Shown here piece by piece: positions 108 to 35,717 of a stretch of DNA of 35,717 bases. A program made the translations under genes and the position numbers. The notes beneath the pieces were generated by a model. That model did no database searches, was not told the DNA's origin, and saw only the letters and a program-made list of their open reading frames with translations. Source of the stretch: an uncultured Bacilli bacterium. GTDB taxonomy: Bacteria; Bacillota_I; Bacilli_A; RF39; UBA660. Every line of letters begins with the position of its first letter. Positions within the stretch are counted from its first letter, which is position 1. The stretch is from the NCBI GenBank assembly GCA_947584105.1, contig CANPWK010000001.1, forward strand, positions 1-35,717. The letters are read 5' to 3'.

Positions 108-647
108 TTATAATATATATAGAAAAGCTATTAATATTAAAATGCAGCCTCCAATTAATGTCGATACTCGACCCAATATTTGATTAATTTTTTTACCTAT
201 ATATAAACCACACAAAGTAAATAAAAAACTAATTAAAGAAAAAGTTAAACTTGCAATAAAAACATTATTAGTTAAGGAATTTAAACCTATTCCTAAAGAA
301 AAACTGTCAATACTAACTGAAAAACCAAATATTAACATTTGAATAAATTTCATTTTGCACATTTTATCAGAATTTCTTAAAGTATCTATAATCATTTCTA
401 GTCCAATAAATACTAATATTATACTGACTAAATAATTATTATTAATAGTAAAAATAGACAATATTTTATTGCCTAAGAAAAAACCAAGTAATGGCATAAA
501 AAAATGATATATACCAACTATTAGTGATAAAGTAAATATTTGTTTTTTATTATTATCAAGTGTCCCATACGCCAGAGCTAAACTAAATGCATCCATACTT
601 AAACTAATTGCAATTATCAATATTAAAAAAAAATTCACACCAATCAC
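108..647 (-). CDS. MntP/YtaF-family (DUF204) integral membrane protein; putative Mn2+ exporter or sporulation membrane protein
   Basis: 179-aa ORF that is hydrophobic throughout. It has the duplicated motif SLSMDAFSLA ... SVSIDSFSLG typical of MntP/YtaF and lies next to spoIIR. Confidence 0.8.
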   Translation of the reverse strand: MIGVNFFLILIIAISLSMDAFSLALAYGTLDNNKKQIFTLSLIVGIYHFFMPLLGFFLGNKILSIFTINNNYLVSIILVFIGLEMIIDTLRNSDKMCKMKFIQMLIFGFSVSIDSFSLGIGLNSLTNNVFIASLTFSLISFLFTLCGLYIGKKINQILGRVSTLIGGCILILIAFLYIL

Positions 648-669
648 CTAGTTCATGGTATGAAACAAA

Positions 670-1191
670 TTAAAAATATTTACTAAATAAATCATTTACT
701 AAAGTAGTATATTCAACATCATCATTGTCACTAGCTTCAATCATGCATATTGGTGGAAATAACACACACCACCAATTATCCCCTTTTCCTTCTCCTAAAG
801 TTACAACTAAAGATTCATAGTAACCATCTTTATATTCTACACCTTTATAAAATTTTTTAGGAAAATAATTATAACCAAAATTAATATCATAACCTAATGA
901 ATAATTTTTTTCTTTTAATAAACTATTTATGTCCTTATTTAAATATTCTAAATTATTTTTGATAGTATCTCTAGCATTATTAACACCTTTAACATTTTTT
1001 AATAATTTATACATATCAGCTGTAACAACATTTTTAACAGACATTTTTATATCTTGATCATAATCACTATTACTATTTGCAATAACTCTTACCCTAATTG
1101 CATCATCAGGAATCATATTATTAGTTTTAAGAGCATTTGTAATTCCTACATATAATAGAAAAATTATTATAAAATATGGTATATATTTCAT
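670..1191 (-). CDS. spoIIR: Stage II sporulation protein R (SpoIIR)
   Basis: N-terminal signal anchor. Motifs IRVRVIANSNSDYDQ and GDNWWCVLFPPICM match the conserved SpoIIR motifs as I recall them (HVIANSDS / NWWCVLFPPLC). Confidence 0.85.
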   Translation of the reverse strand: MKYIPYFIIIFLLYVGITNALKTNNMIPDDAIRVRVIANSNSDYDQDIKMSVKNVVTADMYKLLKNVKGVNNARDTIKNNLEYLNKDINSLLKEKNYSLGYDINFGYNYFPKKFYKGVEYKDGYYESLVVTLGEGKGDNWWCVLFPPICMIEASDNDDVEYTTLVNDLFSKYF

Positions 1192-10087: not shown

Positions 10088-10933
10088 TCACTTCTTTTCT
10101 TTAATATGATATAAATTATATACTTCACTTTTTTTCATTCCACGTTCCTTTGCAACTATCTTAATTGCATCCATAACACTAATGCCGTCTTTTAAATAAA
10201 AATCAATATGTTCTTTTATATTCAAATTATTATATTTTTGAATATTCTTATTTCCCTCAATTACTATTACAAGCTCTCCTTTATAAGAATTATTTTCTTT
10301 AATTAATTCATCTATTGTTCCTCTATATATTTCCTCAAATTTTTTAGTTATTTCCCGGGAAATAGATATTTGCCTATTTCCCAAAATATTTCCCAAATCT
10401 ATTAATACCTTTTTTATTCTATGTGGTGTTTCATAAATTATTAAAGTTGCCTCTATATTTTTTAACATTTCTAATTCTTTTTTTCTTGCACTATCCTGTG
10501 ATTTTAAAAATCCATAATAATAAAATGGCATTGGACATATCCCAGATGATGTAAGTGCTGGAACCAAAGCGGTTGCTCCAGGAAGACTTATAACATTATA
10601 TCCATTTTCTATTGCAAATTTTGCAAGTACATATCCAGGATCACTTATTATAGGTGTACCTCTATCACTTACAAGTCCTACATTAAAACCTTTTTGAAAA
10701 TATTCTAATAATTTTTGTTTGTTTCTTGATTCATTATATTCATGTGAAGATATTAATTTCTTTTTTATATCATAATATTTAAGTAATTCTCCTGTTACTC
10801 TTGTATCTTCACAAAATATAACATCTACCTTTTTCAATGTATTTATTGCTCTAATAGTTATATCTTCCATGTTACCAATAGGTGTAGGTATCAAATATAA
10901 TGAAGGAGAGTTATCATAACTTTTTTGTGACAT
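10088..10933 (-). CDS. rsmI: 16S rRNA (cytidine1402-2'-O)-methyltransferase RsmI (YabC)
   Basis: Tetrapyrrole-methylase fold motifs LYLIPTPIGN, CEDTR and SDRGTPIISDPG. 281 aa. Confidence 0.93.
   Translation of the reverse strand: MSQKSYDNSPSLYLIPTPIGNMEDITIRAINTLKKVDVIFCEDTRVTGELLKYYDIKKKLISSHEYNESRNKQKLLEYFQKGFNVGLVSDRGTPIISDPGYVLAKFAIENGYNVISLPGATALVPALTSSGICPMPFYYYGFLKSQDSARKKELEMLKNIEATLIIYETPHRIKKVLIDLGNILGNRQISISREITKKFEEIYRGTIDELIKENNSYKGELVIVIEGNKNIQKYNNLNIKEHIDFYLKDGISVMDAIKIVAKERGMKKSEVYNLYHIKEKK
10349..10364. promoter_or_regulatory. Perfect Noc-binding-site (NBS) palindrome TATTTCCCGGGAAATA inside rsmI
   Basis: It contains the full 14-bp B. subtilis NBS consensus ATTTCCCGGGAAAT as I recall it. 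It is flanked by TATTTCCC half-sites at 10249, 10375 and 10387. Confidence 0.7.
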
Positions 10934-16592: not shown

Positions 16593-16608
16593 TGTTTCAC
16601 GTGAAACA
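16593..16608. promoter_or_regulatory. parS: parS site 1 (perfect TGTTTCACGTGAAACA)
   Basis: Exact 16-bp palindrome matching the Firmicute parS consensus TGTTNCACGTGAAACA. It lies 4 nt from the GGAGG of dnaX. Confidence 0.85.
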
Positions 16609-16639
16609 TTATAAATAATATAATATAATTTAATAACAA

Positions 16640-16655
16640 TGTTTCACGTGGAACA
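16640..16655. promoter_or_regulatory. parS: parS site 2 (TGTTTCACGTGGAACA)
   Basis: The reverse complement TGTTCCACGTGAAACA equals the classical B. subtilis spo0J-internal parS as I recall it. Extended flanks are AACAATG...CATTGTT. Confidence 0.85.
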
Positions 16656-16671
16656 TTGTTTTATTTTTTTG

Positions 16672-17118
16672 TTATGATGTTTCACGTGAAACATTTGATT
16701 TTTTTCTTTTTACTTTAAAAAATTTTTTTAACAAATCAACCATTTCATTGTCATAATTACATTTTTCAACTTTTATTTTACTATTAATTAATAAATATGT
16801 ACATCCATAGTTATCATTATTTACTAAATAAATTATTTTTTTTATTCTTGATTGAATTAATGCTCCACAACACATCATGCATGGTTCCATAGTTGTATAT
16901 AAAATACAATTATCTAAATGCCAGGTATGTTTTTTTTTGCAAGCTTTATTAATTGCTATAATTTCTGCATGTAAAATAGCATTATTTTTTTTATTTTTTT
17001 GATTATAAGCTTTTGAAATAATTTTATTATTTTCTACAATTACAGCTCCAACTGGAATATCATTTTTTTTATAAGCTTTTTTAGCTTGCAAAATAGCTTC
17101 TTTCATATAAAAATTCAT
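16672..17118 (-). CDS. tadA: tRNA adenosine(34) deaminase TadA
   Basis: CDA-fold motifs HAEIIAI and EPCMMCCGA. 148 aa. The last 8 codons run through a parS palindrome. Confidence 0.93.
   Translation of the reverse strand: MNFYMKEAILQAKKAYKKNDIPVGAVIVENNKIISKAYNQKNKKNNAILHAEIIAINKACKKKHTWHLDNCILYTTMEPCMMCCGALIQSRIKKIIYLVNNDNYGCTYLLINSKIKVEKCNYDNEMVDLLKKFFKVKRKKSNVSRETS
16678..16693. promoter_or_regulatory. parS: parS site 3 (perfect), inside the last codons of tadA
   Basis: Exact TGTTTCACGTGAAACA. It encodes the ..NVSRETS* tail of the tadA ORF. Confidence 0.85.
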
Positions 17119-17129
17119 TGTACCTCCAA

Positions 17130-17145
17130 TGTTTCACGTGAAACA
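17130..17145. promoter_or_regulatory. parS: parS site 4 (perfect), between the SRP RNA 3' end and the tadA SD
   Basis: Exact TGTTTCACGTGAAACA. Its 18-bp form ends 1 nt from the GGAGG of tadA. Confidence 0.85.
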
Positions 17146-17148
17146 TAT

Positions 17149-17226
17149 AAAAAAAGCACACACATTTAGGGATTCTTAAGGCTGCTATTTTCCAATTCTG
17201 ACCTGATTCAAATATAAATGTTGTGC
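17149..17226 (-). ncRNA. ffs: Small (4.5S-type, ~78 nt) signal recognition particle RNA
   Basis: The minus-strand RNA is GCACAACAUUUAUAUUUGAAUCAGGUCAGAAUUGGAAAAUAGCAGCCUUAAGAAUCCCUAAAUGUGUGUGC followed by U7. The segment UCAGAAUU-GGAA-AAUAGCAGCC aligns with E. coli 4.5S domain IV (UCAGGUCC-GGAA-GGAAGCAGCC), with compensatory CC/GG to UU/AA changes around the GGAA tetraloop. The termini pair (GCACA.../...UGUGC). It lies next to tadA/dnaX, as scr does in Bacillus. Confidence 0.85.
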
Positions 17227-17232
17227 ATTAAT

Positions 17233-17261
17233 AATATACTATAATACTAAATATAATGCAA
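17233..17261 (-). promoter_or_regulatory. Putative sigma-A promoter of the SRP RNA gene
   Basis: On the minus strand, TTGCAT-17 nt-TATATT. The G at 17226 lies 7 nt downstream of the -10. Confidence 0.5.
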
Positions 17262-17266
17262 CTAAA

Positions 17267-17312
17267 TTTTATTTTTATTAATGTTTCACGTGAAACATTA
17301 ATAAAAATAAAA
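17267..17312. repeat. parS: 46-bp perfect palindrome centred on parS site 5 (core 17282..17297); probable gyrA terminator hairpin
   Basis: TTTTATTTTTATTAATGTTTCAC|GTGAAACATTAATAAAAATAAAA. Both 23-nt arms are exactly complementary, checked by hand. Confidence 0.85.
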
Positions 17313-17334
17313 ATCTCAACACATAAAATAACAA

Positions 17335-17350
17335 TGTTTCATGTGGAACA
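17335..17350. promoter_or_regulatory. parS: parS site 6 (variant TGTTTCATGTGGAACA)
   Basis: Differs from site 2 at one position in the 16-bp core and shares its extended flanks (TAACAATG...CATTGTTA). Confidence 0.7.
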
Positions 17351-17375
17351 TTGTTATTAAATTAAATTATATTAT

Positions 17376-19892
17376 TTATAATGTTTCACGTGAAACATTC
17401 TCTTCCTCATTATCTATTTCAGGTTCAATTAATGTAATAGTGCTGACTTTTTGATTATCTTTTAAATTAATTAATTTAACTCCCTGAGCAACTCTACCTG
17501 TTAAAGAAACTTGATTTAATGATAATCTAATAATAATTCCATTATCAGTAATAATCATCAAATCTTCATTACCAATAACACTCTTAAACGAAACTATATT
17601 TCCATTTTTATTTGTTATATTTAATGCTTTAACTCCTTTGCTTCCTCTATGAGTTATTCTATATTCTTCAACATTTGTTTTCTTACCATAACCATTTTCA
17701 GTTACTACTAATATTTTTTTATCTTTATTTGAAATTTCGCAACCTACTACTTTACCTTCGCCAACTTCTATTCCTTTAACACCTGCAGCAGTACGTCCCA
17801 TAACTCTAATTTCTGATTCATTAAACCTTATCATTCTTCCATTACTTGAAGCAATTATAATTTCATTTTTTCCATTAGTTTTTTGAACATCTACTAATTC
17901 ATCATTTTCTTTTAAAGTAATTGCTAATTTACCATTTGTTCTAATATTATTAAATTCACGAACGTTTGTTCTTTTAACTAATCCGTTTGCTGTAGCAAAG
18001 ACTATATAACCATCAGCATCTTCATTTTTTAAATTCAACATAGCTTTTACTTTTTCATCTTTTTCTATAGGAATTAGATTAACTATAGGTAAACCTTTTG
18101 ACTGTCGACTGAATGTAGGAATTTCATAACCCTTTAACCTATATACTTTTCCTTTATTAGTAAATATCATTAAATAATCGTGTGTTGTCATTGAAATAAT
18201 CTTTTCAACAAAATCTTCTTCGTTTGTAGACATTCCTTTAATTCCAACTCCACCTCTATTTTGTGTTTTATAAGTTTCACTTGTAATTCTTTTTATATAA
18301 CCATTATTAGTTAAAGTTATTACTATATCCTCTACTGGAATAAGAGATTCATCCTCTATATAATCTATAGCAGTCATATCTATAGTAGTTTTGCGTTCAT
18401 CTGAATATTTATGTTTTATTTCATTTAATTCTTCTTTTATAATATTTAATATTTTTTGTTCACTAGCTAAAATAGATTTTAATTCATCTATATATTTTAA
18501 TAAAGTATTTAACTCTTCTTCAATTTTATTTCTTTCTAATCCCGTTAATCTTCTTAATTTTAATTCTAGAATACTATTTGATTGAATTTCACTCAAATTG
18601 AAATTTTTCATAAGCGATTCTCTAGCATCTTGATCAGAATCAGATTCTTTTATAATTTTTATAACTCTATCGATATTGTCTAAGGCTATTTTATAACCTT
18701 GAAGAATATGTACTCTATTTTCTGATTTATTTAATTCAAATCTTGTTCTTCTAATAATTACTTCTTTTTGATAATCTATATATTTAGATATGATTGATTT
18801 TAAAGGTAATGTTTTTGGAACTTGACCATCTAACATTAAAAATGTAATTCCATAATTTATTTGAAAAGAAGTATGTTTATATAAATTATTTAAAATAACT
18901 TGAGCATTTGCATCTTTCTTTAAAGTAATAGTTATTTTTACACCATCTTTTAAATCAGTATGATAATCTGATATACCATCAATTACTTTATTATGAACAA
19001 GTTCTGCTACTTTATTTTTTAAATCCATTGTATTGACACCATATGGAACTTCAGTAATTATTATTTGACTATGACCATTATTTTCTTCAATAGAAGCCCT
19101 ACTTCTAATAGTAATTGTCCCTTTTCCTGTTTCATATGCTTGTTTAATTCCTGAATTACCTAAAATAACTCCTCCAGTTGGAAAATCTGGTCCTTTTATA
19201 TATTGCATTAAACCTAAAGTATCTATTTCTGGATTATCTATATAAGCAATACATCCATCAATTACCTCTCCTAAATTATGTGGTGGTATATTTGTAGCCA
19301 TTCCAACGGCAATTCCCATTGATCCATTAACTAAAACATTGGGAAATCTACTTGGTAAAACTATTGGTTCTTTACTAGTAGCATCAAAATTATCTTCCAT
19401 ATCAACAGTATCTTTATTAATATCCCTTAATAATTCTAAAGAAATTTTCGATAATCTAGCTTCTGTATAACGATAAGCAGCTGCTCCATCGCCTTCTATA
19501 TTACCAAAATTACCATGACCATCAATAAGCATATATCTTTGATTAAAATCTTGAGCTAATCGAACCATAGCATCATATATAGAAGCATCTCCATGTGGAT
19601 GGTAATGTCCCATTACATAACCTACAGTTGTTGCTGATTTTTTATGTGGCTTATCTGGAGTATTTCCCTCTTCAAACATAGACCATAAAATTCTTCTATG
19701 TACTGGTTTTAATCCATCTCTTAAATCTGGAATAGCACGTGAAGTAATAACACTCATTGAATAATCAAGAAATGATTTTTGAACTTCCTCTACTATGTTA
19801 TTTTCATATAGACTATCTCTTTCATGAAATTTTTCGCCATATTTATTTTCATCTAAATTATTTTTATCTTTTAATTCATTATTATCTTCCAT
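17376..19892 (-). CDS. gyrA: DNA gyrase subunit A
   Basis: AIPDLRDGLKPVHRRILW, the active-site Tyr region AAAYRYTEARL, and C-terminal beta-pinwheel repeats. 838 aa. Confidence 0.98.
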   Translation of the reverse strand: MEDNNELKDKNNLDENKYGEKFHERDSLYENNIVEEVQKSFLDYSMSVITSRAIPDLRDGLKPVHRRILWSMFEEGNTPDKPHKKSATTVGYVMGHYHPHGDASIYDAMVRLAQDFNQRYMLIDGHGNFGNIEGDGAAAYRYTEARLSKISLELLRDINKDTVDMEDNFDATSKEPIVLPSRFPNVLVNGSMGIAVGMATNIPPHNLGEVIDGCIAYIDNPEIDTLGLMQYIKGPDFPTGGVILGNSGIKQAYETGKGTITIRSRASIEENNGHSQIIITEVPYGVNTMDLKNKVAELVHNKVIDGISDYHTDLKDGVKITITLKKDANAQVILNNLYKHTSFQINYGITFLMLDGQVPKTLPLKSIISKYIDYQKEVIIRRTRFELNKSENRVHILQGYKIALDNIDRVIKIIKESDSDQDARESLMKNFNLSEIQSNSILELKLRRLTGLERNKIEEELNTLLKYIDELKSILASEQKILNIIKEELNEIKHKYSDERKTTIDMTAIDYIEDESLIPVEDIVITLTNNGYIKRITSETYKTQNRGGVGIKGMSTNEEDFVEKIISMTTHDYLMIFTNKGKVYRLKGYEIPTFSRQSKGLPIVNLIPIEKDEKVKAMLNLKNEDADGYIVFATANGLVKRTNVREFNNIRTNGKLAITLKENDELVDVQKTNGKNEIIIASSNGRMIRFNESEIRVMGRTAAGVKGIEVGEGKVVGCEISNKDKKILVVTENGYGKKTNVEEYRITHRGSKGVKALNITNKNGNIVSFKSVIGNEDLMIITDNGIIIRLSLNQVSLTGRVAQGVKLINLKDNQKVSTITLIEPEIDNEEENVSRETL
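17382..17397. promoter_or_regulatory. parS: parS site 7 (perfect), inside the last codons of gyrA
   Basis: Exact TGTTTCACGTGAAACA. It encodes the ..NVSRETL* tail of gyrA. Confidence 0.85.
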
Positions 19893-23032: not shown

Positions 23033-23069
23033 AATAAAAAAAGAAATTTAGCCTTTATAAATTTCTTTT
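23033..23069 (-). terminator. Intrinsic terminator after comK
   Basis: 12-bp stem AAAAGAAAUUUA / UAAAUUUCUUUU with a 7-nt loop, followed by UUUAUU on the minus strand. It overlaps the comK stop codon. Confidence 0.7.
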
Positions 23070-23520
23070 ATCCTTCTTTGACAATATGATCATATAATTT
23101 TGATTTTAACAAAGAAGCACGACAATATTGATTTTTTAATGAATATACTGAAATAGATGTAGATAACTTTTTACCATTTTTAAATAATATATAAGTTTGA
23201 TTGTTCTCACATATAATATCCTTAATATGATTTAAAGATATCCACATAGATTGTTGATTTCTCGTTGATGAAGTGGGAAAAAAGATTATTCTTCTAGTTT
23301 CTTCTATTATTATTGGAAATTTTGACTTTATTCCAGTTAAACTCTTTGTCCCTTCACATCTTCCAATATATGAACTGCCATAAAAATTACAATTATATTT
23401 AATAATTTTATTGCTGGAATTTGCAACTTCATATTCACAATCTTCTTCATAAATCATACTTTTACTATTATTTATAGGAATAATTGCTTGTGTTGAATCG
23501 TTTATTTCATATTCTTTCAT
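23068..23520 (-). CDS. comK: Competence transcription factor ComK family protein
   Basis: 150 aa. FYGSSYIGRCEGT, IIFFPTSSTRNQQSMWISLNHIK and FKNGKKLSTSISVYSLKNQYCRASLLKSK align with B. subtilis ComK (FFGSSYAGRKAGT / IFLFPTLSSTRPQCGWISHVHVK / FSNGKTMELPISYNSFENQVYRTAWLRTK), from memory. Confidence 0.85.
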   Translation of the reverse strand: MKEYEINDSTQAIIPINNSKSMIYEEDCEYEVANSSNKIIKYNCNFYGSSYIGRCEGTKSLTGIKSKFPIIIEETRRIIFFPTSSTRNQQSMWISLNHIKDIICENNQTYILFKNGKKLSTSISVYSLKNQYCRASLLKSKLYDHIVKEG

Positions 23521-30161: not shown

Positions 30162-30671
30162 TTATTTGTTAATAAATATATAATATGGAATAAAAGATGC
30201 CAATGTGTTTTTCAATTTTAACATTTTAGCATTAGGACAATACTTTTTTAATTCATCCTTAGGTCCTGAATATTTAATAAATGCTAATCTACTTTCTGTT
30301 TCTAACATGATGAGCGAAGAGCTTACATGTACTGCTATAACTTCATATCTATTTACAGTTGTTATTAAACGAGATTTAGGAGCAATTGCTAATTCAGAAA
30401 CAATCATTTTATCATTTTCAAAAATTATATTGTCATACAAATTATTAACTAGTTCAAGAATTTCTGGATGATGTTTTATAATAGGCGATAAATTTATATT
30501 AGATATCTCAAAACCATAAATAAATAGAAGCAATTCAACTAAAGTTATTATGCCAAAAAATATTGTTCCTCCAAGTGGTTCTGCTTCAATAATAGAGAAT
30601 AAAGTCATAACCCCAAAAAACAATAATATTGGATAACTAACAAAAATTATGATTAATCCCATAACTTCCAT
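30162..30671 (-). CDS. Hypothetical membrane protein (two N-terminal TM helices plus a ~110-aa soluble domain)
   Basis: 169-aa ORF on the opposite strand between mnmE and mnmG. No family recognised. The frame stays open upstream to an ATT at 30722 that is preceded by AAAGGTGAGGG. Confidence 0.6.
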   Translation of the reverse strand: MEVMGLIIIFVSYPILLFFGVMTLFSIIEAEPLGGTIFFGIITLVELLLFIYGFEISNINLSPIIKHHPEILELVNNLYDNIIFENDKMIVSELAIAPKSRLITTVNRYEVIAVHVSSSLIMLETESRLAFIKYSGPKDELKKYCPNAKMLKLKNTLASFIPYYIFINK

Positions 30672-32844: not shown

Positions 32845-33535
32845 ATTTATAGAAGAGATTAAAAAAATTGGGATAGAAATAACAGAAGATAAATTATTAC
32901 AATTGGAAAAATATTATGAATTATTAATAAAATACAATGAATTTATTAATTTAACGAGTATAACTAATAAAAAGGAAGTATATTTAAAACATTTTTATGA
33001 TTCTATAACAATTAGTAAAATAATTGATTTAAATAAAGAAAAAAGTTTATGTGATTTAGGTAGTGGAGCAGGATTTCCTGGTATTGTTATAAAAATATTT
33101 TTTCCTCATTTAGAAATTACATTAATTGATTCATTAAATAAAAGAGTAAAATTTTTAAATACTGTTATTGAAGAATTAAATTTAAAAGGAATAAAAGCAA
33201 TTCATATAAGAATAGAAGAATATGCCAAATGTAATAAAGAAAAATATGATATAGTTACTGCAAGGGCTGTTGCATCTTTAAATATTTTACTTGAACTGGG
33301 GATTAATTTAGTTAAAGTTGGGAAATATTTTATAGCAATGAAAGGAAATATTAATAATGAATTGCAATATAAAAATATAATAAAAAAATTAAATTGTTCT
33401 ATTGAAAATATTATAGAATTTCAATTACCAATTGAAAATAGTAAAAGAAGTTTAATAAAAATAAAAAAAGAAAAATCTACTCCAAAAATATTTCCCAGAA
33501 AATATAGTGAGGTAAAAAAGAATCCTTTAATATAA
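32831..33535 (+). CDS. rsmG: 16S rRNA (guanine527-N7)-methyltransferase RsmG (GidB)
   Basis: HFYDSI and the SAM motif DLGSGAGFPGIV. 234 aa. Conserved position after mnmG. Confidence 0.95.
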   Translation: MNQDKFIEEIKKIGIEITEDKLLQLEKYYELLIKYNEFINLTSITNKKEVYLKHFYDSITISKIIDLNKEKSLCDLGSGAGFPGIVIKIFFPHLEITLIDSLNKRVKFLNTVIEELNLKGIKAIHIRIEEYAKCNKEKYDIVTARAVASLNILLELGINLVKVGKYFIAMKGNINNELQYKNIIKKLNCSIENIIEFQLPIENSKRSLIKIKKEKSTPKIFPRKYSEVKKNPLI

Positions 33536-33556
33536 AAGTTTAAAGGATTTTTATTT
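33521..33556 (+). terminator. Intrinsic terminator after rsmG
   Basis: 10-bp stem AATCCTTTAA / TTAAAGGATT with a 9-nt loop, followed by TTTTATTT. It overlaps the rsmG stop codon. Confidence 0.7.
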
Positions 33557-33598
33557 CCCAAAATATTTTAATATGCTATTGCATTATTTCCCAAAATA
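33552..33598. promoter_or_regulatory. Two copies of TTATTTCCCAAAATAT (NBS-like half-site motif) in the noc promoter region
   Basis: Exact 16-mers at 33551..33566 and 33584..33599, 33 bp apart. The second fills the 17-nt spacer between TTGCAT (33579..33584) and TAATAT (33602..33607). A related ATATTTCCCAGAAAATAT lies at 33488..33505. Confidence 0.6.
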
Positions 33599-33634
33599 TA
33601 GTAATATAATAATAAGAATAGAAAGGAGTTAAAA

Positions 33635-35266
33635 ATGCAAGATAACAAGGGAATTAATAAAGTAATTGAATTAGAAAATAATGATATCCTACCTAATAGA
33701 TTTCAACCTAGAAAATATTTTGATGAAGAAGAAATATTGCAGTTATCAGAATCGATTAAAGAACATGGTGTACTAAATCCAATAATAGTTAGAAGACTCG
33801 GAGATAAATACGAATTAGTTGCTGGCGAAAGAAGATATAAAGCCAATATTTTAGCAGGAAATGATAAAATTCCAGCTATTGTTATGGATGTAAACGATAA
33901 AGAGAGTTCAGAAATAGCAGTAGTAGAAAATATTCAAAGAAAAGATTTAAATGCAATAGAAGAAGCTATTTCATATAAAAGAATATTAGACATAGGCTAT
34001 ATGACTCAAGAACAGTTAGCACGCAAAATGGGAAAAAGTCAATCATCAATTGCTAATAAAATAAGATTATTAAAATTGTCAGATGAAGTTCAAGATGCTT
34101 TAATGAAAAAACAAATATCAGAAAGACATGCAAGGTCATTACTAAGATTAGAGTCAATAAGCAAGCAAAATGAATTATTAAAAAGAATTATTGATGAAAG
34201 ATTAACTGTAAGAAAAACGGATGAGGAGATAGAAAAAATGAATAATAATATTAATGCCAATATTTTAAATAATGAGTATTCTCAAGATAATAATACAAAT
34301 AACTATATAAATAATAATATAAATGCAAATAATAATATAAATAATAATAATATGGAGAATAATCTAAATAACAATAATATAGATAATATATATTCTCAAA
34401 ATATTAATGGATTTAATCAAAATATGCAAATGAATAACCAAATAAATAGAAATATAACTAATTTTAATTCAGATCAAAATCAACAATCTACTATAACTAA
34501 TTTTAATGATGTAATTTTAACTAAAGATGAAAAAATACCAGAAGTACCAAGTACTAATCCAATAGAAGAAAATATTACACCAATAATGCCTGATAAATCA
34601 GTACCAGAAGTTGATTTATCAACTTTCCAAGAGGAAAATAATACAGATTTAAATACAATTAATAATGACATTTTTAAAAATAATTCTCAAATACCTGTTA
34701 GTGATTTTAATTTAGATAATCAAGTAGTAATGCAAGATAATATAAATTCTAATTTTATTTCTTTAGATGATAGTACCAAAAATCCAGTAAATGATAACGT
34801 AAATATAAACAATGTAAATAATATAAAATTAGATTTAGATTCTAACATAGCAAGTCATAATTTAAATGATAATATTTTTATAAAACCTCAATCTGACATA
34901 GTAGAAAATGATAAAAATAATAATAATAATATTAAAATTAATGAAAATGAATATAATAATAATCAATCCAATATGTTTAAATCGTCGCCAATAATTGATA
35001 CTACAAATAATAATCAAGAAAATCAAAATAATAATTATCAATCAGAAGTGAAACCAGAACCAATTATAGTAAATGATTATAATCAACAATATGATCCTAT
35101 AATGCCAGAAAAAGAAAATATAAATCCAACAATTGATTTTAAATCTATCATAAATTTAATTAGAAAGTGTTCTGCAGCTATAGAAAATAGTGGATATAAA
35201 ATTGAAACAGAAGAATATAATTTAGATAATTTATATCAAGTTATATTTAAAATTGAAAAACAATAA
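33635..35266 (+). CDS. noc: ParB-family nucleoid occlusion protein (Noc-type) with a ~300-aa Asn-rich low-complexity insertion
   Basis: ParB N-domain (LPNRFQPRKYF, VAGERRYKA) and an HTH with Noc-type residues (GKSQSSIANKIRLLKL ... ISERHARSLL, against Spo0J GKSRPHIANHLRLLTL ... SMGHGRTLL). The C-terminal ~45 aa (IINLIRKCSAAIENSGYKIETEEYNLDNLYQVIFKIEKQ) resemble the Noc C-terminus ([35 protein letters not shown]). Conserved position after rsmG. Confidence 0.85.
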   Translation: MQDNKGINKVIELENNDILPNRFQPRKYFDEEEILQLSESIKEHGVLNPIIVRRLGDKYELVAGERRYKANILAGNDKIPAIVMDVNDKESSEIAVVENIQRKDLNAIEEAISYKRILDIGYMTQEQLARKMGKSQSSIANKIRLLKLSDEVQDALMKKQISERHARSLLRLESISKQNELLKRIIDERLTVRKTDEEIEKMNNNINANILNNEYSQDNNTNNYINNNINANNNINNNNMENNLNNNNIDNIYSQNINGFNQNMQMNNQINRNITNFNSDQNQQSTITNFNDVILTKDEKIPEVPSTNPIEENITPIMPDKSVPEVDLSTFQEENNTDLNTINNDIFKNNSQIPVSDFNLDNQVVMQDNINSNFISLDDSTKNPVNDNVNINNVNNIKLDLDSNIASHNLNDNIFIKPQSDIVENDKNNNNNIKINENEYNNNQSNMFKSSPIIDTTNNNQENQNNNYQSEVKPEPIIVNDYNQQYDPIMPEKENINPTIDFKSIINLIRKCSAAIENSGYKIETEEYNLDNLYQVIFKIEKQ

Positions 35267-35427: not shown

Positions 35428-35717
35428 ATGAATAATAATCAAAATAGTTGTGGAAATTTAGTAAAAAAAGCTTGTAAAAAAATAGAACATGATTCTAAAT
35501 ATGCATCCAATTTGTCAATGACAATAGTAGGTCCAACAGGGCCTACCGGTCCAACGGGCCCAACAGGTCCAACGGGTCCAACAGGCCCAACAGGTCCAAT
35601 GGGACCAGCTACCGTTTCAGTAGGTGAAACTACAACAGCAGCTCCAGGGCAAGTAGCTAATGTAATTAATTCTGGGACTAATACTGAAGCAGTATTAGAA
35701 TTTACTATCCCTCAAGG
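35428..35717 (+). CDS. Collagen-like triple-helix-repeat protein (BclA-like exosporium/surface protein), 5' fragment truncated by the window end
   Basis: AAAGGAGG SD then ATG. Translation is [34 protein letters not shown]-(GPT)7[42 protein letters not shown]. The GPT repeat block (35531..35608) is locally GC-rich with mixed synonymous codons. Confidence 0.8.

Follow-up and report, generated by a model that had tools for sequence, protein, structure and literature searches.

A Noc-type ParB-family protein with a long acidic linker and no recognisable N-terminal membrane helix in uncultured Bacilli

Noc is a ParB-family nucleoid-occlusion protein, and in the current model its simultaneous binding of DNA and, through an N-terminal helix, of the membrane blocks division, with CTP thought to release the helix. 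The extreme N-terminus (about residues 1–15) is highly conserved in Noc, and an amphipathic N-terminal helix was predicted for every homologue looked at; deletion of 10 residues leads to loss of peripheral foci and of function, and residues K2, F5, R7, F8, and F9 of the Bacillus subtilis helix were mutated in the localisation study (Adams 2015, PMC4331003). The amphipathic helix, a second helix, and an 8-residue loop stand before the Noc core domain (Jalal 2021, PMC8429893). The subject here is a noc-like gene on a 35,717-nucleotide contig of an uncultured Bacilli bacterium (CANPWK010000001.1, assembly GCA_947584105.1), the whole of which is referred to as the window. Its 543-residue product has the DNA-reading and dimerisation domains of Noc, separated by a long acidic linker, and lacks a recognisable N-terminal membrane helix.

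Other members of the family frame the comparison. In ParB, replacement of R, T, A, and G by Q173, K179, K184, and R201 is sufficient to convert binding from parS to the Noc-binding site (NBS) (Jalal 2020, PMC7383237). KorB of plasmid RK2 is a ParB-family CTPase that acts as a sliding-clamp transcriptional repressor (PMC11790492). For classical Noc, CTP-dependent phase separation has been described, with membranes promoting condensation through the anchor (Babl 2022, PMC9606368). A survey of Firmicutes infers an ancestral origin cluster that includes parA, parB, and noc (PMC8136486).

The window protein is identified as a Noc-type, NBS-specific member of the ParB family with a predicted CTP clamp. 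Like the Noc proteins of B. subtilis, Geobacillus thermoleovorans, and Staphylococcus aureus (TIGR04285), it combines a CTP-binding domain, a helix-turn-helix (HTH) domain with Q, K, K, and R at the specificity positions, and a C-terminal domain (Table 1). The Noc model TIGR04285 is its top NCBIfam match (276 bits), and the Spo0J/ParB model TIGR00180 scores 172 bits. When residues 213–487 are removed from the linker, TIGR04285 is matched over positions 1–255 of 255 with 287.6 bits. The C-terminal 77 residues alone match positions 188–255 (E = 1e-4), where the last ~48 residues correspond to the C-terminal end of the model. Among solved structures, Noc entries 7NG0, 7NFU, and 7OL9 rank first (182–192 bits; 46–47% identity over 200 residues), above Spo0J/ParB (131–168 bits), and in Foldseek the DNA-binding domain is closer to the Noc–NBS complex 6Y93 (template-modelling score 0.90–0.92) than to the ParB–parS domain 6S6H (0.64–0.74). 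An AlphaFold model built with a 140-sequence alignment gives a predicted local distance difference test (pLDDT) above 90 for residues 10–212 and about 95 for residues 500–541. These results bear out the reading of the original prediction that the N-terminal ~200 residues form a ParB/Noc CTPase-plus-HTH module and that the last ~45 match the Noc C-terminal dimerisation domain.

Relatives were drawn from the best 120 matches in a collection of 5.8 billion proteins together with the best 150 representatives of clusters at 50% identity. The CTP motifs of the window protein are GERRYK (residues 64–69), in which Lys takes the place of the last Arg of the GERRxR box, and ENIQRKDL (residues 98–105); G64, E65, R66, R67, E98, N99, and R102 are invariant across 140 family representatives. 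The fold and CTP motifs are common to Spo0J/ParB (42–47% identity to ParB structures), and the same clamp is probable. What distinguishes the window protein from Spo0J/ParB is the Noc-model C-terminal domain, the lack of an N-terminal ParA-interaction peptide (the N-terminus is too short and polar), the lack of an adjacent parA, and the residues that read DNA.

The recognition region GKSQSSIANKIRLLKL...ERHAR (nt 34031–34135) holds Q136, K142, K147, and R164, the equivalents of Q173, K179, K184, and R201 of Jalal 2020 with exact spacing. The four Noc-like residues had been picked out previously, and both their identity and their spacing agree with the published set. The parS-type residues R173 and G201 are thus replaced by Q136 and R164, which are nearly invariant among the 140 representatives; the Q...R pair is present in every representative whose pattern could be parsed (83/140). 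The commonest family pattern is Q-K-N-R, which keeps one permissive Lys.

The N-terminus departs from that of classical Noc. Strand 1 begins after only nine polar residues (MQDNKGINK), and LPNRFQPR after 18 residues, so that the N-terminus is 18–20 residues shorter than in Noc crystal constructs. The amphipathic helix needed for function in B. subtilis (Adams 2015, PMC4331003), helix alpha-2, and the spacer, all present in classical Noc, are missing. An AAAGGAG ribosome-binding site lies 7 nt 5' of the ATG, and an N-terminal extension is not possible because in-frame stops at 33599 and 33602 are followed by no other start codon before the ATG; relatives keep both the promoter and the ribosome-binding site. 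A mis-called start concealing a helix is thereby excluded, and the absence of the membrane-targeting element noticed in the original prediction holds. A scan of the whole protein found no amphipathic stretch outside the folded domains, the strongest amphipathic windows all falling within helices that belong to the folded DNA-binding or C-terminal domain. Family representatives have 13–24 residues before LPNR, and none of the 140 has a basic-FF motif ([KR][FL]F) at the N-terminus. The window protein is therefore read as lacking an N-terminal amphipathic membrane-targeting helix, and without that anchor the classical mechanism, in which CTP frees the helix for insertion, is not open to it.

Table 1. 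Positions of the noc-like gene, its domains and motifs, and the candidate binding sites in the window.
Feature	Position	Strand	Remarks
noc-like gene, 543 aa	33635..35266	+	ParB-family protein of Noc type without recognisable N-terminal membrane helix
ParB N-terminal (CTP-binding) domain, residues 10-101	33662..33937	+	Pfam ParB_N, PF02195 3.6e-30
HTH DNA-binding domain, residues 103-203	33941..34243	+	Pfam HTH_ParB
Disordered linker, about residues 213-490	34271..35104	+	from composition and AlphaFold pLDDT
SSPIIDTT, residues 450-457	34982..35005	+	conserved short motif, distal linker; subfamily form (P/T)xPIID
PEPIIVNDYNQQYDPIMP, residues 474-491	35054..35107	+	conserved motif directly before C-terminal domain; subfamily form PEPIIVxDYNKQYDP(I/V)MP
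Noc-type C-terminal dimerisation domain, residues 500-541	35132..35257	+	one helix and two strands, pLDDT about 95
noc promoter block, two direct NBS half-sites TATTTCCCAAAA at 33552 and 33585	33552..33607	+	conserved block
NBS-like palindrome TATTTCCCAGAAAATA, 2 mismatches	33489..33504	.	3' end of rsmG, 63 bp upstream of first promoter half-site
Perfect 16-bp NBS TATTTCCCGGGAAATA at 10349-10364, then half-sites at 10375 and 10387	10349..10394	.	inside rsmI-like gene
Seven parS sites, five perfect TGTTTCACGTGAAACA	16593..17397	.	flank tadA and SRP RNA, between gyrA and dnaX

The architecture is not a peculiarity of one assembly. Apart from a few entries cut short at contig ends, the shortest of which end inside the linker and were left out, all 260 of the closest representatives (about 360–980 residues) combine a short N-terminus with a Noc-type C-terminal domain and, between them, a linker that is long but variable, and an insertion like the ~300-residue one first noticed in the window is thus found in its relatives. 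The long-linker Noc clade is found in Erysipelotrichaceae-like uncultured Bacilli, and its hundreds of sequence clusters derive mostly from metagenome assemblies, with rumen and human-gut samples among them; no description of a long-linker, anchor-less Noc clade was found in the literature searched. An assembly or frameshift artefact, with a real protein of about 280 residues, might be suspected from a linker region that is AT-rich and repetitive and from a contig that stops 450 bp downstream in another repeat. One uninterrupted frame links both conserved ends of the 543-residue protein, and the same architecture is repeated across hundreds of assemblies of independent origin (ENA, JGI, Logan, and NCBI). 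Because the long linker is clade-wide, it is not an artefact, and the chance that it is one is negligible.

The position of the gene agrees with its assignment. It stands directly after rsmG (gidB) near oriC, as noc does in B. subtilis, and is the positional counterpart of noc in its ancestral place. In eight relatives on longer contigs, some about 40% identical, the rsmG-noc pair is followed by uvrB, lgt, and ung and later by rpsF-ssb-rpsR, or by unrelated genes; no downstream neighbour is conserved among the eight. The gene appears to differ from classical noc in not being followed by soj-spo0J. This absence is not readable from the window alone, which is a whole contig that stops 450 bp past the gene, and it is the relatives that support it (0/8 have soj-spo0J after noc). 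A collagen-like gene had been proposed to replace soj-spo0J here. The observation stands in that an open reading frame (ORF) of (GPT)n repeats (period 9, about 8 copies) occupies 35428–35717 on the + strand and runs off the contig end; relatives have uvrB or other genes in that place. The 96 available residues of this ORF have no Pfam match, and its repeat probably broke the assembly.

DNA sites of the Noc type accompany the protein. As on chromosomes with classical Noc, a perfect 16-bp NBS is present, in one copy in the 35.7-kb window of 23% GC. Within the rsmI-like gene it encodes I-S-R-E-I with the sole CGG, the rarest Arg codon, among the 259 Arg codons counted. The identical 16-mer, with the same codons, occurs in the rsmI-like orthologue of relative L007 (L007 15753–15789), whose Noc is about 50% identical and whose dnaX holds a further NBS with 1 mismatch. 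The palindrome at 33489 has its equivalent just upstream of noc as an NBS with 1 mismatch in relative L009 and as a perfect NBS in relative L010. Perfect NBS sites are apparently kept by selection at the DNA level.

Half-sites of the NBS are also enriched, unlike the situation described for classical Noc, and lie over the protein's own promoter. With 14 copies of the half-site TATTTCCC, the window exceeds the 1.75 expected. When nine loci (189 kb) are pooled, the half-site ranks 2nd by frequency among 6,714 8-mers with three G/C and 1st among the 192 8-mers that contain CCC or GGG (62 copies; mean 6.5, sd 7). TTGGGAAAT outnumbers TTAGGAAAT (36 copies to 13) despite the opposite preference of control contexts, where TTA-GGx exceeds TTG-GGx by 12:0, 11:1, and 5:1, which indicates selection on the DNA itself. 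Two direct TATTTCCCAAAA half-sites, 21–33 bp apart, precede noc in all loci examined, including those of members about 40% identical. Alignment of six loci shows no change in the core promoter block, and three relatives further removed also have the pair of half-sites. In the window, the second half-site fills the 17-nt spacer between TTGCAT (33579–33584) and TAATAT (33602–33607), a position that suggests autoregulation. KorB offers a parallel as a ParB-family clamp with sites at or near promoters, and its structures 8QA8 and 8QA9 are among the matches of the window protein. The likeness is limited: identity is only 27–29%, the window gene lies on a chromosome, nothing resembling a KorA or TrbA partner can be recognised, and site position is what suggests repression.

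The window also contains a compact cluster of parS, with 7 sites in 805 bp against 0.01 expected. Each of the five perfect 16-mers is set within a longer palindrome, A-ATGTTTCACGTGAAACAT-T. Relatives L007 and L008 have four perfect sites each at the same locus, and in the two relatives as in the window about 9 kb separate dnaA from the cluster. In L007 it shares a 240-kb contig with a Noc of 596 residues. The genes bracketed by the window sites are tadA (16672–17118, − strand) and the bacterial small signal recognition particle (SRP) RNA (Rfam RF00169, 56.6 bits; 17140–17236, − strand), the latter sitting between parS sites. With its NBS-type residues, the window protein is not expected to bind these sites. 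Conserved parS clusters call for a separate parS reader, and a parS-binding ParB with R173 and G201 is therefore very probably encoded elsewhere in these genomes.

Taken jointly, the propositions that the protein is a Noc, reads NBS, has no direct membrane anchor, and is not the centromere-binding ParB are likely to be correct. Several findings weigh against them. Both the native score and that of the linker-deleted construct (276 and 287.6 bits) fall below the curated TIGR04285 cutoff of 315 bits. The hexamers TTGCAT and TAATAT are weak and were read from the conserved block, a consensus promoter scan not listing them. Outside the promoter, 36 of 45 half-sites read GGGAAATA along the leading strand (36:9, 80%, p = 7e-5), mostly in the frame xxG GGA AAT A. 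Such a strand bias is not predicted for a symmetric binder, and part of the half-site signal may thus belong to another system or to coding constraints: the favoured orientation uses common codons and could have this source, or GGGAAATA/TATTTCCC may serve a different system as a polar motif, for instance a Chi-like one, whose sequence is also that of half an NBS. Finally, no ParA or ParB gene was found in the 35.7-kb window or in 41.5 kb around oriC on the 240-kb contig of the relative.

This last result, together with the lack of parA or parB beside noc here and in the eight relatives, whose noc flanks hold no ParA-type gene, is what recommends the second possibility raised in the original prediction, namely that the protein is the organism's only ParB-family member and serves as both centromere binder and nucleoid-occlusion factor. 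The four residues are the exact set that switches ParB from parS to NBS, the N-terminus is too short for a ParA-activating peptide, and the organism carries spoIIR, spoVT, and comK. Clusters of four to seven parS sites, perfect copies among them, are kept in three genomes, and perfect NBS sites are kept as well. On these grounds the dual-role reading is disfavoured, and it is highly improbable. The first possibility, a mechanistically different Noc, is plausible given that the anchor appears to be absent.

The linker, about 280 residues long and acidic, is unlike that of classical Noc, which is short. Between the DNA-binding and C-terminal domains, the classical linker is basic. The window linker (about 280–290 residues) is 30% Asn and 12% Ile with a net charge of −27, and pLDDT is below 50 over most of residues 221–470 and about 57 over 470–490. 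Across 127 family linkers, length ranges from 129 to 531 residues, net charge is negative in all 127 (median −0.13 per residue), Arg makes up 0.5%, and Pro, Glu, and Asn about 11–12% each. The original prediction had described an Asn-rich disordered insert; the disorder is sustained, and the Asn-richness is not a family trait, the median being 11% and the window the family maximum. It is therefore largely a local effect of a 19% GC segment. AT drift alone is not enough to explain the composition, because the linker uses AAT 81 times and AAA 12 times, while in intergenic DNA AAA exceeds AAT. Lys falls to 4% against 10.5% in other genes. Across the family, what is kept in the linker is its disorder, its net negative charge, and its shortage of Arg and Lys.

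The linker changes quickly. That of the window contains short imperfect AAT-rich tandem repeats, proteins of near-identical strains (P0049–P0062) differ in length by steps of about 31 residues (444, 475, 506, and 537), and relative L003 (10001–12013) has several copies of a repeat of roughly 53 residues. These patterns suggest rapid repeat expansion and contraction. A sticker-and-spacer arrangement was also considered: regular placing of aromatic residues has marginal support in the window linker (p = 0.049) and none across the family (median z = 0), and it was rejected as a family property.

Hypervariable sequence, stepwise lengths, an Asn content that follows genome AT content, and the lack of family-wide aromatic spacing are what would be seen if the linker were a largely neutral low-complexity expansion and the protein a DNA-bound clamp or autoregulator, its occlusion role lost or never present; half-sites over the protein's own promoter likewise fit a regulator. 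Such neutrality sits poorly with the rest of the family data. A short linker is seen in none of the 260 closest representatives whose sequence extends to the C-terminal domain, every linker measured is net negative with almost no Arg, Lys is depleted in the window linker despite a composition that favours AAA, and short conserved motifs persist. A neutral linker is accordingly judged unlikely.

The persistent motifs cluster toward the C-terminal domain. SPIID and PEPIIVxDYxxQYDPIMP are strongly conserved in the subfamily of the window protein (146/235 non-redundant family sequences), and looser motifs, LNPI[NE]E..TPI and [F]D[IV]F[GN], recur further upstream in linkers. In a second AlphaFold run on the last 111 residues, the PEPIIV...QYDPIMP region reaches pLDDT 73–80 without regular secondary structure; as modelled, it may be a partner-binding motif or an extension of the dimer interface. 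Other parts of the family carry different motifs. NPGFMD[IV]xKIE is present in the linker of 63 of the 140 representatives, distant members (e.g., P0187, P0228, and P0256), and G[KR]FF[NSTG] followed by two hydrophobic residues in 76 of the 140, within poly-Glu/Asp tracts. In distant members, L[KR]PG[KR]FFN lies about 50–70 residues after NPGFMD[IV]xKIE..A. The sequence INSNFISLDD in the window linker looked like a remnant of G[KR]FF, but linkers align too unreliably in MAFFT for homology to be accepted.

G[KR]FF recalls the basic-FF core found in the membrane-targeting helix of B. subtilis Noc (PMC4331003). Membrane or divisome tethering may have been kept but moved, either to a hydrophobic linker motif or to a membrane-anchored partner docked on the C-terminal-side motifs, with classical Noc function retained. 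The recurrence of G[KR]FF and NPGFMD..KIE and the strong conservation of SPIID and PEPIIVxDYxxQYDPIMP in the window's subfamily speak for this arrangement. Speaking against it, G[KR]FF and PGFMD are absent from the window protein and its closest relatives, poly-Glu/Asp surroundings are unfavourable for anionic membranes, and no partner is identifiable, with no conserved neighbour gene. A moved tether is judged rather unlikely.

For a Noc without direct tethering, the following course of events can be proposed. The Noc-type clamp would load at NBS and NBS half-sites and close with CTP as Noc and ParB do, and it would repress, or at least occupy, its own promoter. The parS cluster would be served by a separate Spo0J-type ParB encoded outside the origin-proximal region. 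Without the N-terminal helix, an effect on division or chromosome organisation would have to come from elsewhere, which is the weakest step of the proposal. Bulky polyanionic tails are candidates for a steric or electrostatic coat, or a condensate, on NBS-marked DNA; alternatively, partners would be recruited by the SPIID and PEPIIVxDYxxQYDPIMP motifs near the C-terminal domain. The features of the linker fit a polyanionic tether that does not stick to DNA and that would enlarge the clamp, place heads on separated half-sites, form a coat, or present docking motifs. By analogy with Noc condensates (PMC9606368), a long low-complexity linker could enhance condensation. The window protein nevertheless differs from condensing Noc in having no anchor, a strongly acidic linker, and a family without a sticker-like aromatic pattern.

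A more far-reaching form of this proposal, a long shot as it stands, is that the Noc of this clade gave up both membrane tethering and strict palindrome recognition, that its long-tethered heads bind TATTTCCC half-sites independently, and that CTP clamps coat origin-proximal DNA as a polyanionic brush or condensate. Near the origin there is roughly one half-site per 3 kb, and the noc promoter has them as phased direct repeats. If true, this coat would shape chromosome organisation or keep the division machinery away, in a manner unlike that of any studied nucleoid-occlusion system.

A large natural clade has no recognisable N-terminal helix, although the NBS-reading head, the CTP motifs, the dimerisation domain, and NBS sites are all kept. 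It would amount to a natural experiment in nucleoid occlusion without direct membrane tethering, or would reveal another ancestral role of Noc, such as chromosome organisation or regulation. Testable features are supplied by the conserved linker motifs, the promoter half-sites, and the acidic, Arg-free tether, and the parS cluster flags a compact multi-site centromere in the genomes of the clade.

The window covers the origin region, with the switch in GC skew near 26 kb. Its genes are, in order, metG, spoVT, mfd, pth, rsmI ... recR, ybaB, dnaX, tadA, SRP RNA, gyrA, gyrB, recF, comK, dnaN, and dnaA, followed by oriC and then yidC, jag, mnmE, mnmG, rsmG, and noc. The window and its relatives carry comK, spoVT, spoIIR, and bofA at a GC content of about 23–27%, and this gene set suggests a spore-forming host lineage. 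The comK homologue lies between dnaN and recF (23068–23520, − strand), with the same placement in L007 and L008, and adjoins dnaN in L006. Between mnmE and mnmG is an ORF of 169 residues without a Pfam match (30162–30671, − strand); other small unannotated ORFs occupy this position in relatives (L004 5750–6694). In the window (108–1191) the spoIIR-mntP pair is found to the dnaA/gyrA side of the origin, in L006 (16265–17354) and L009 (20915–21689) to the noc side, which suggests rearrangement across the origin.

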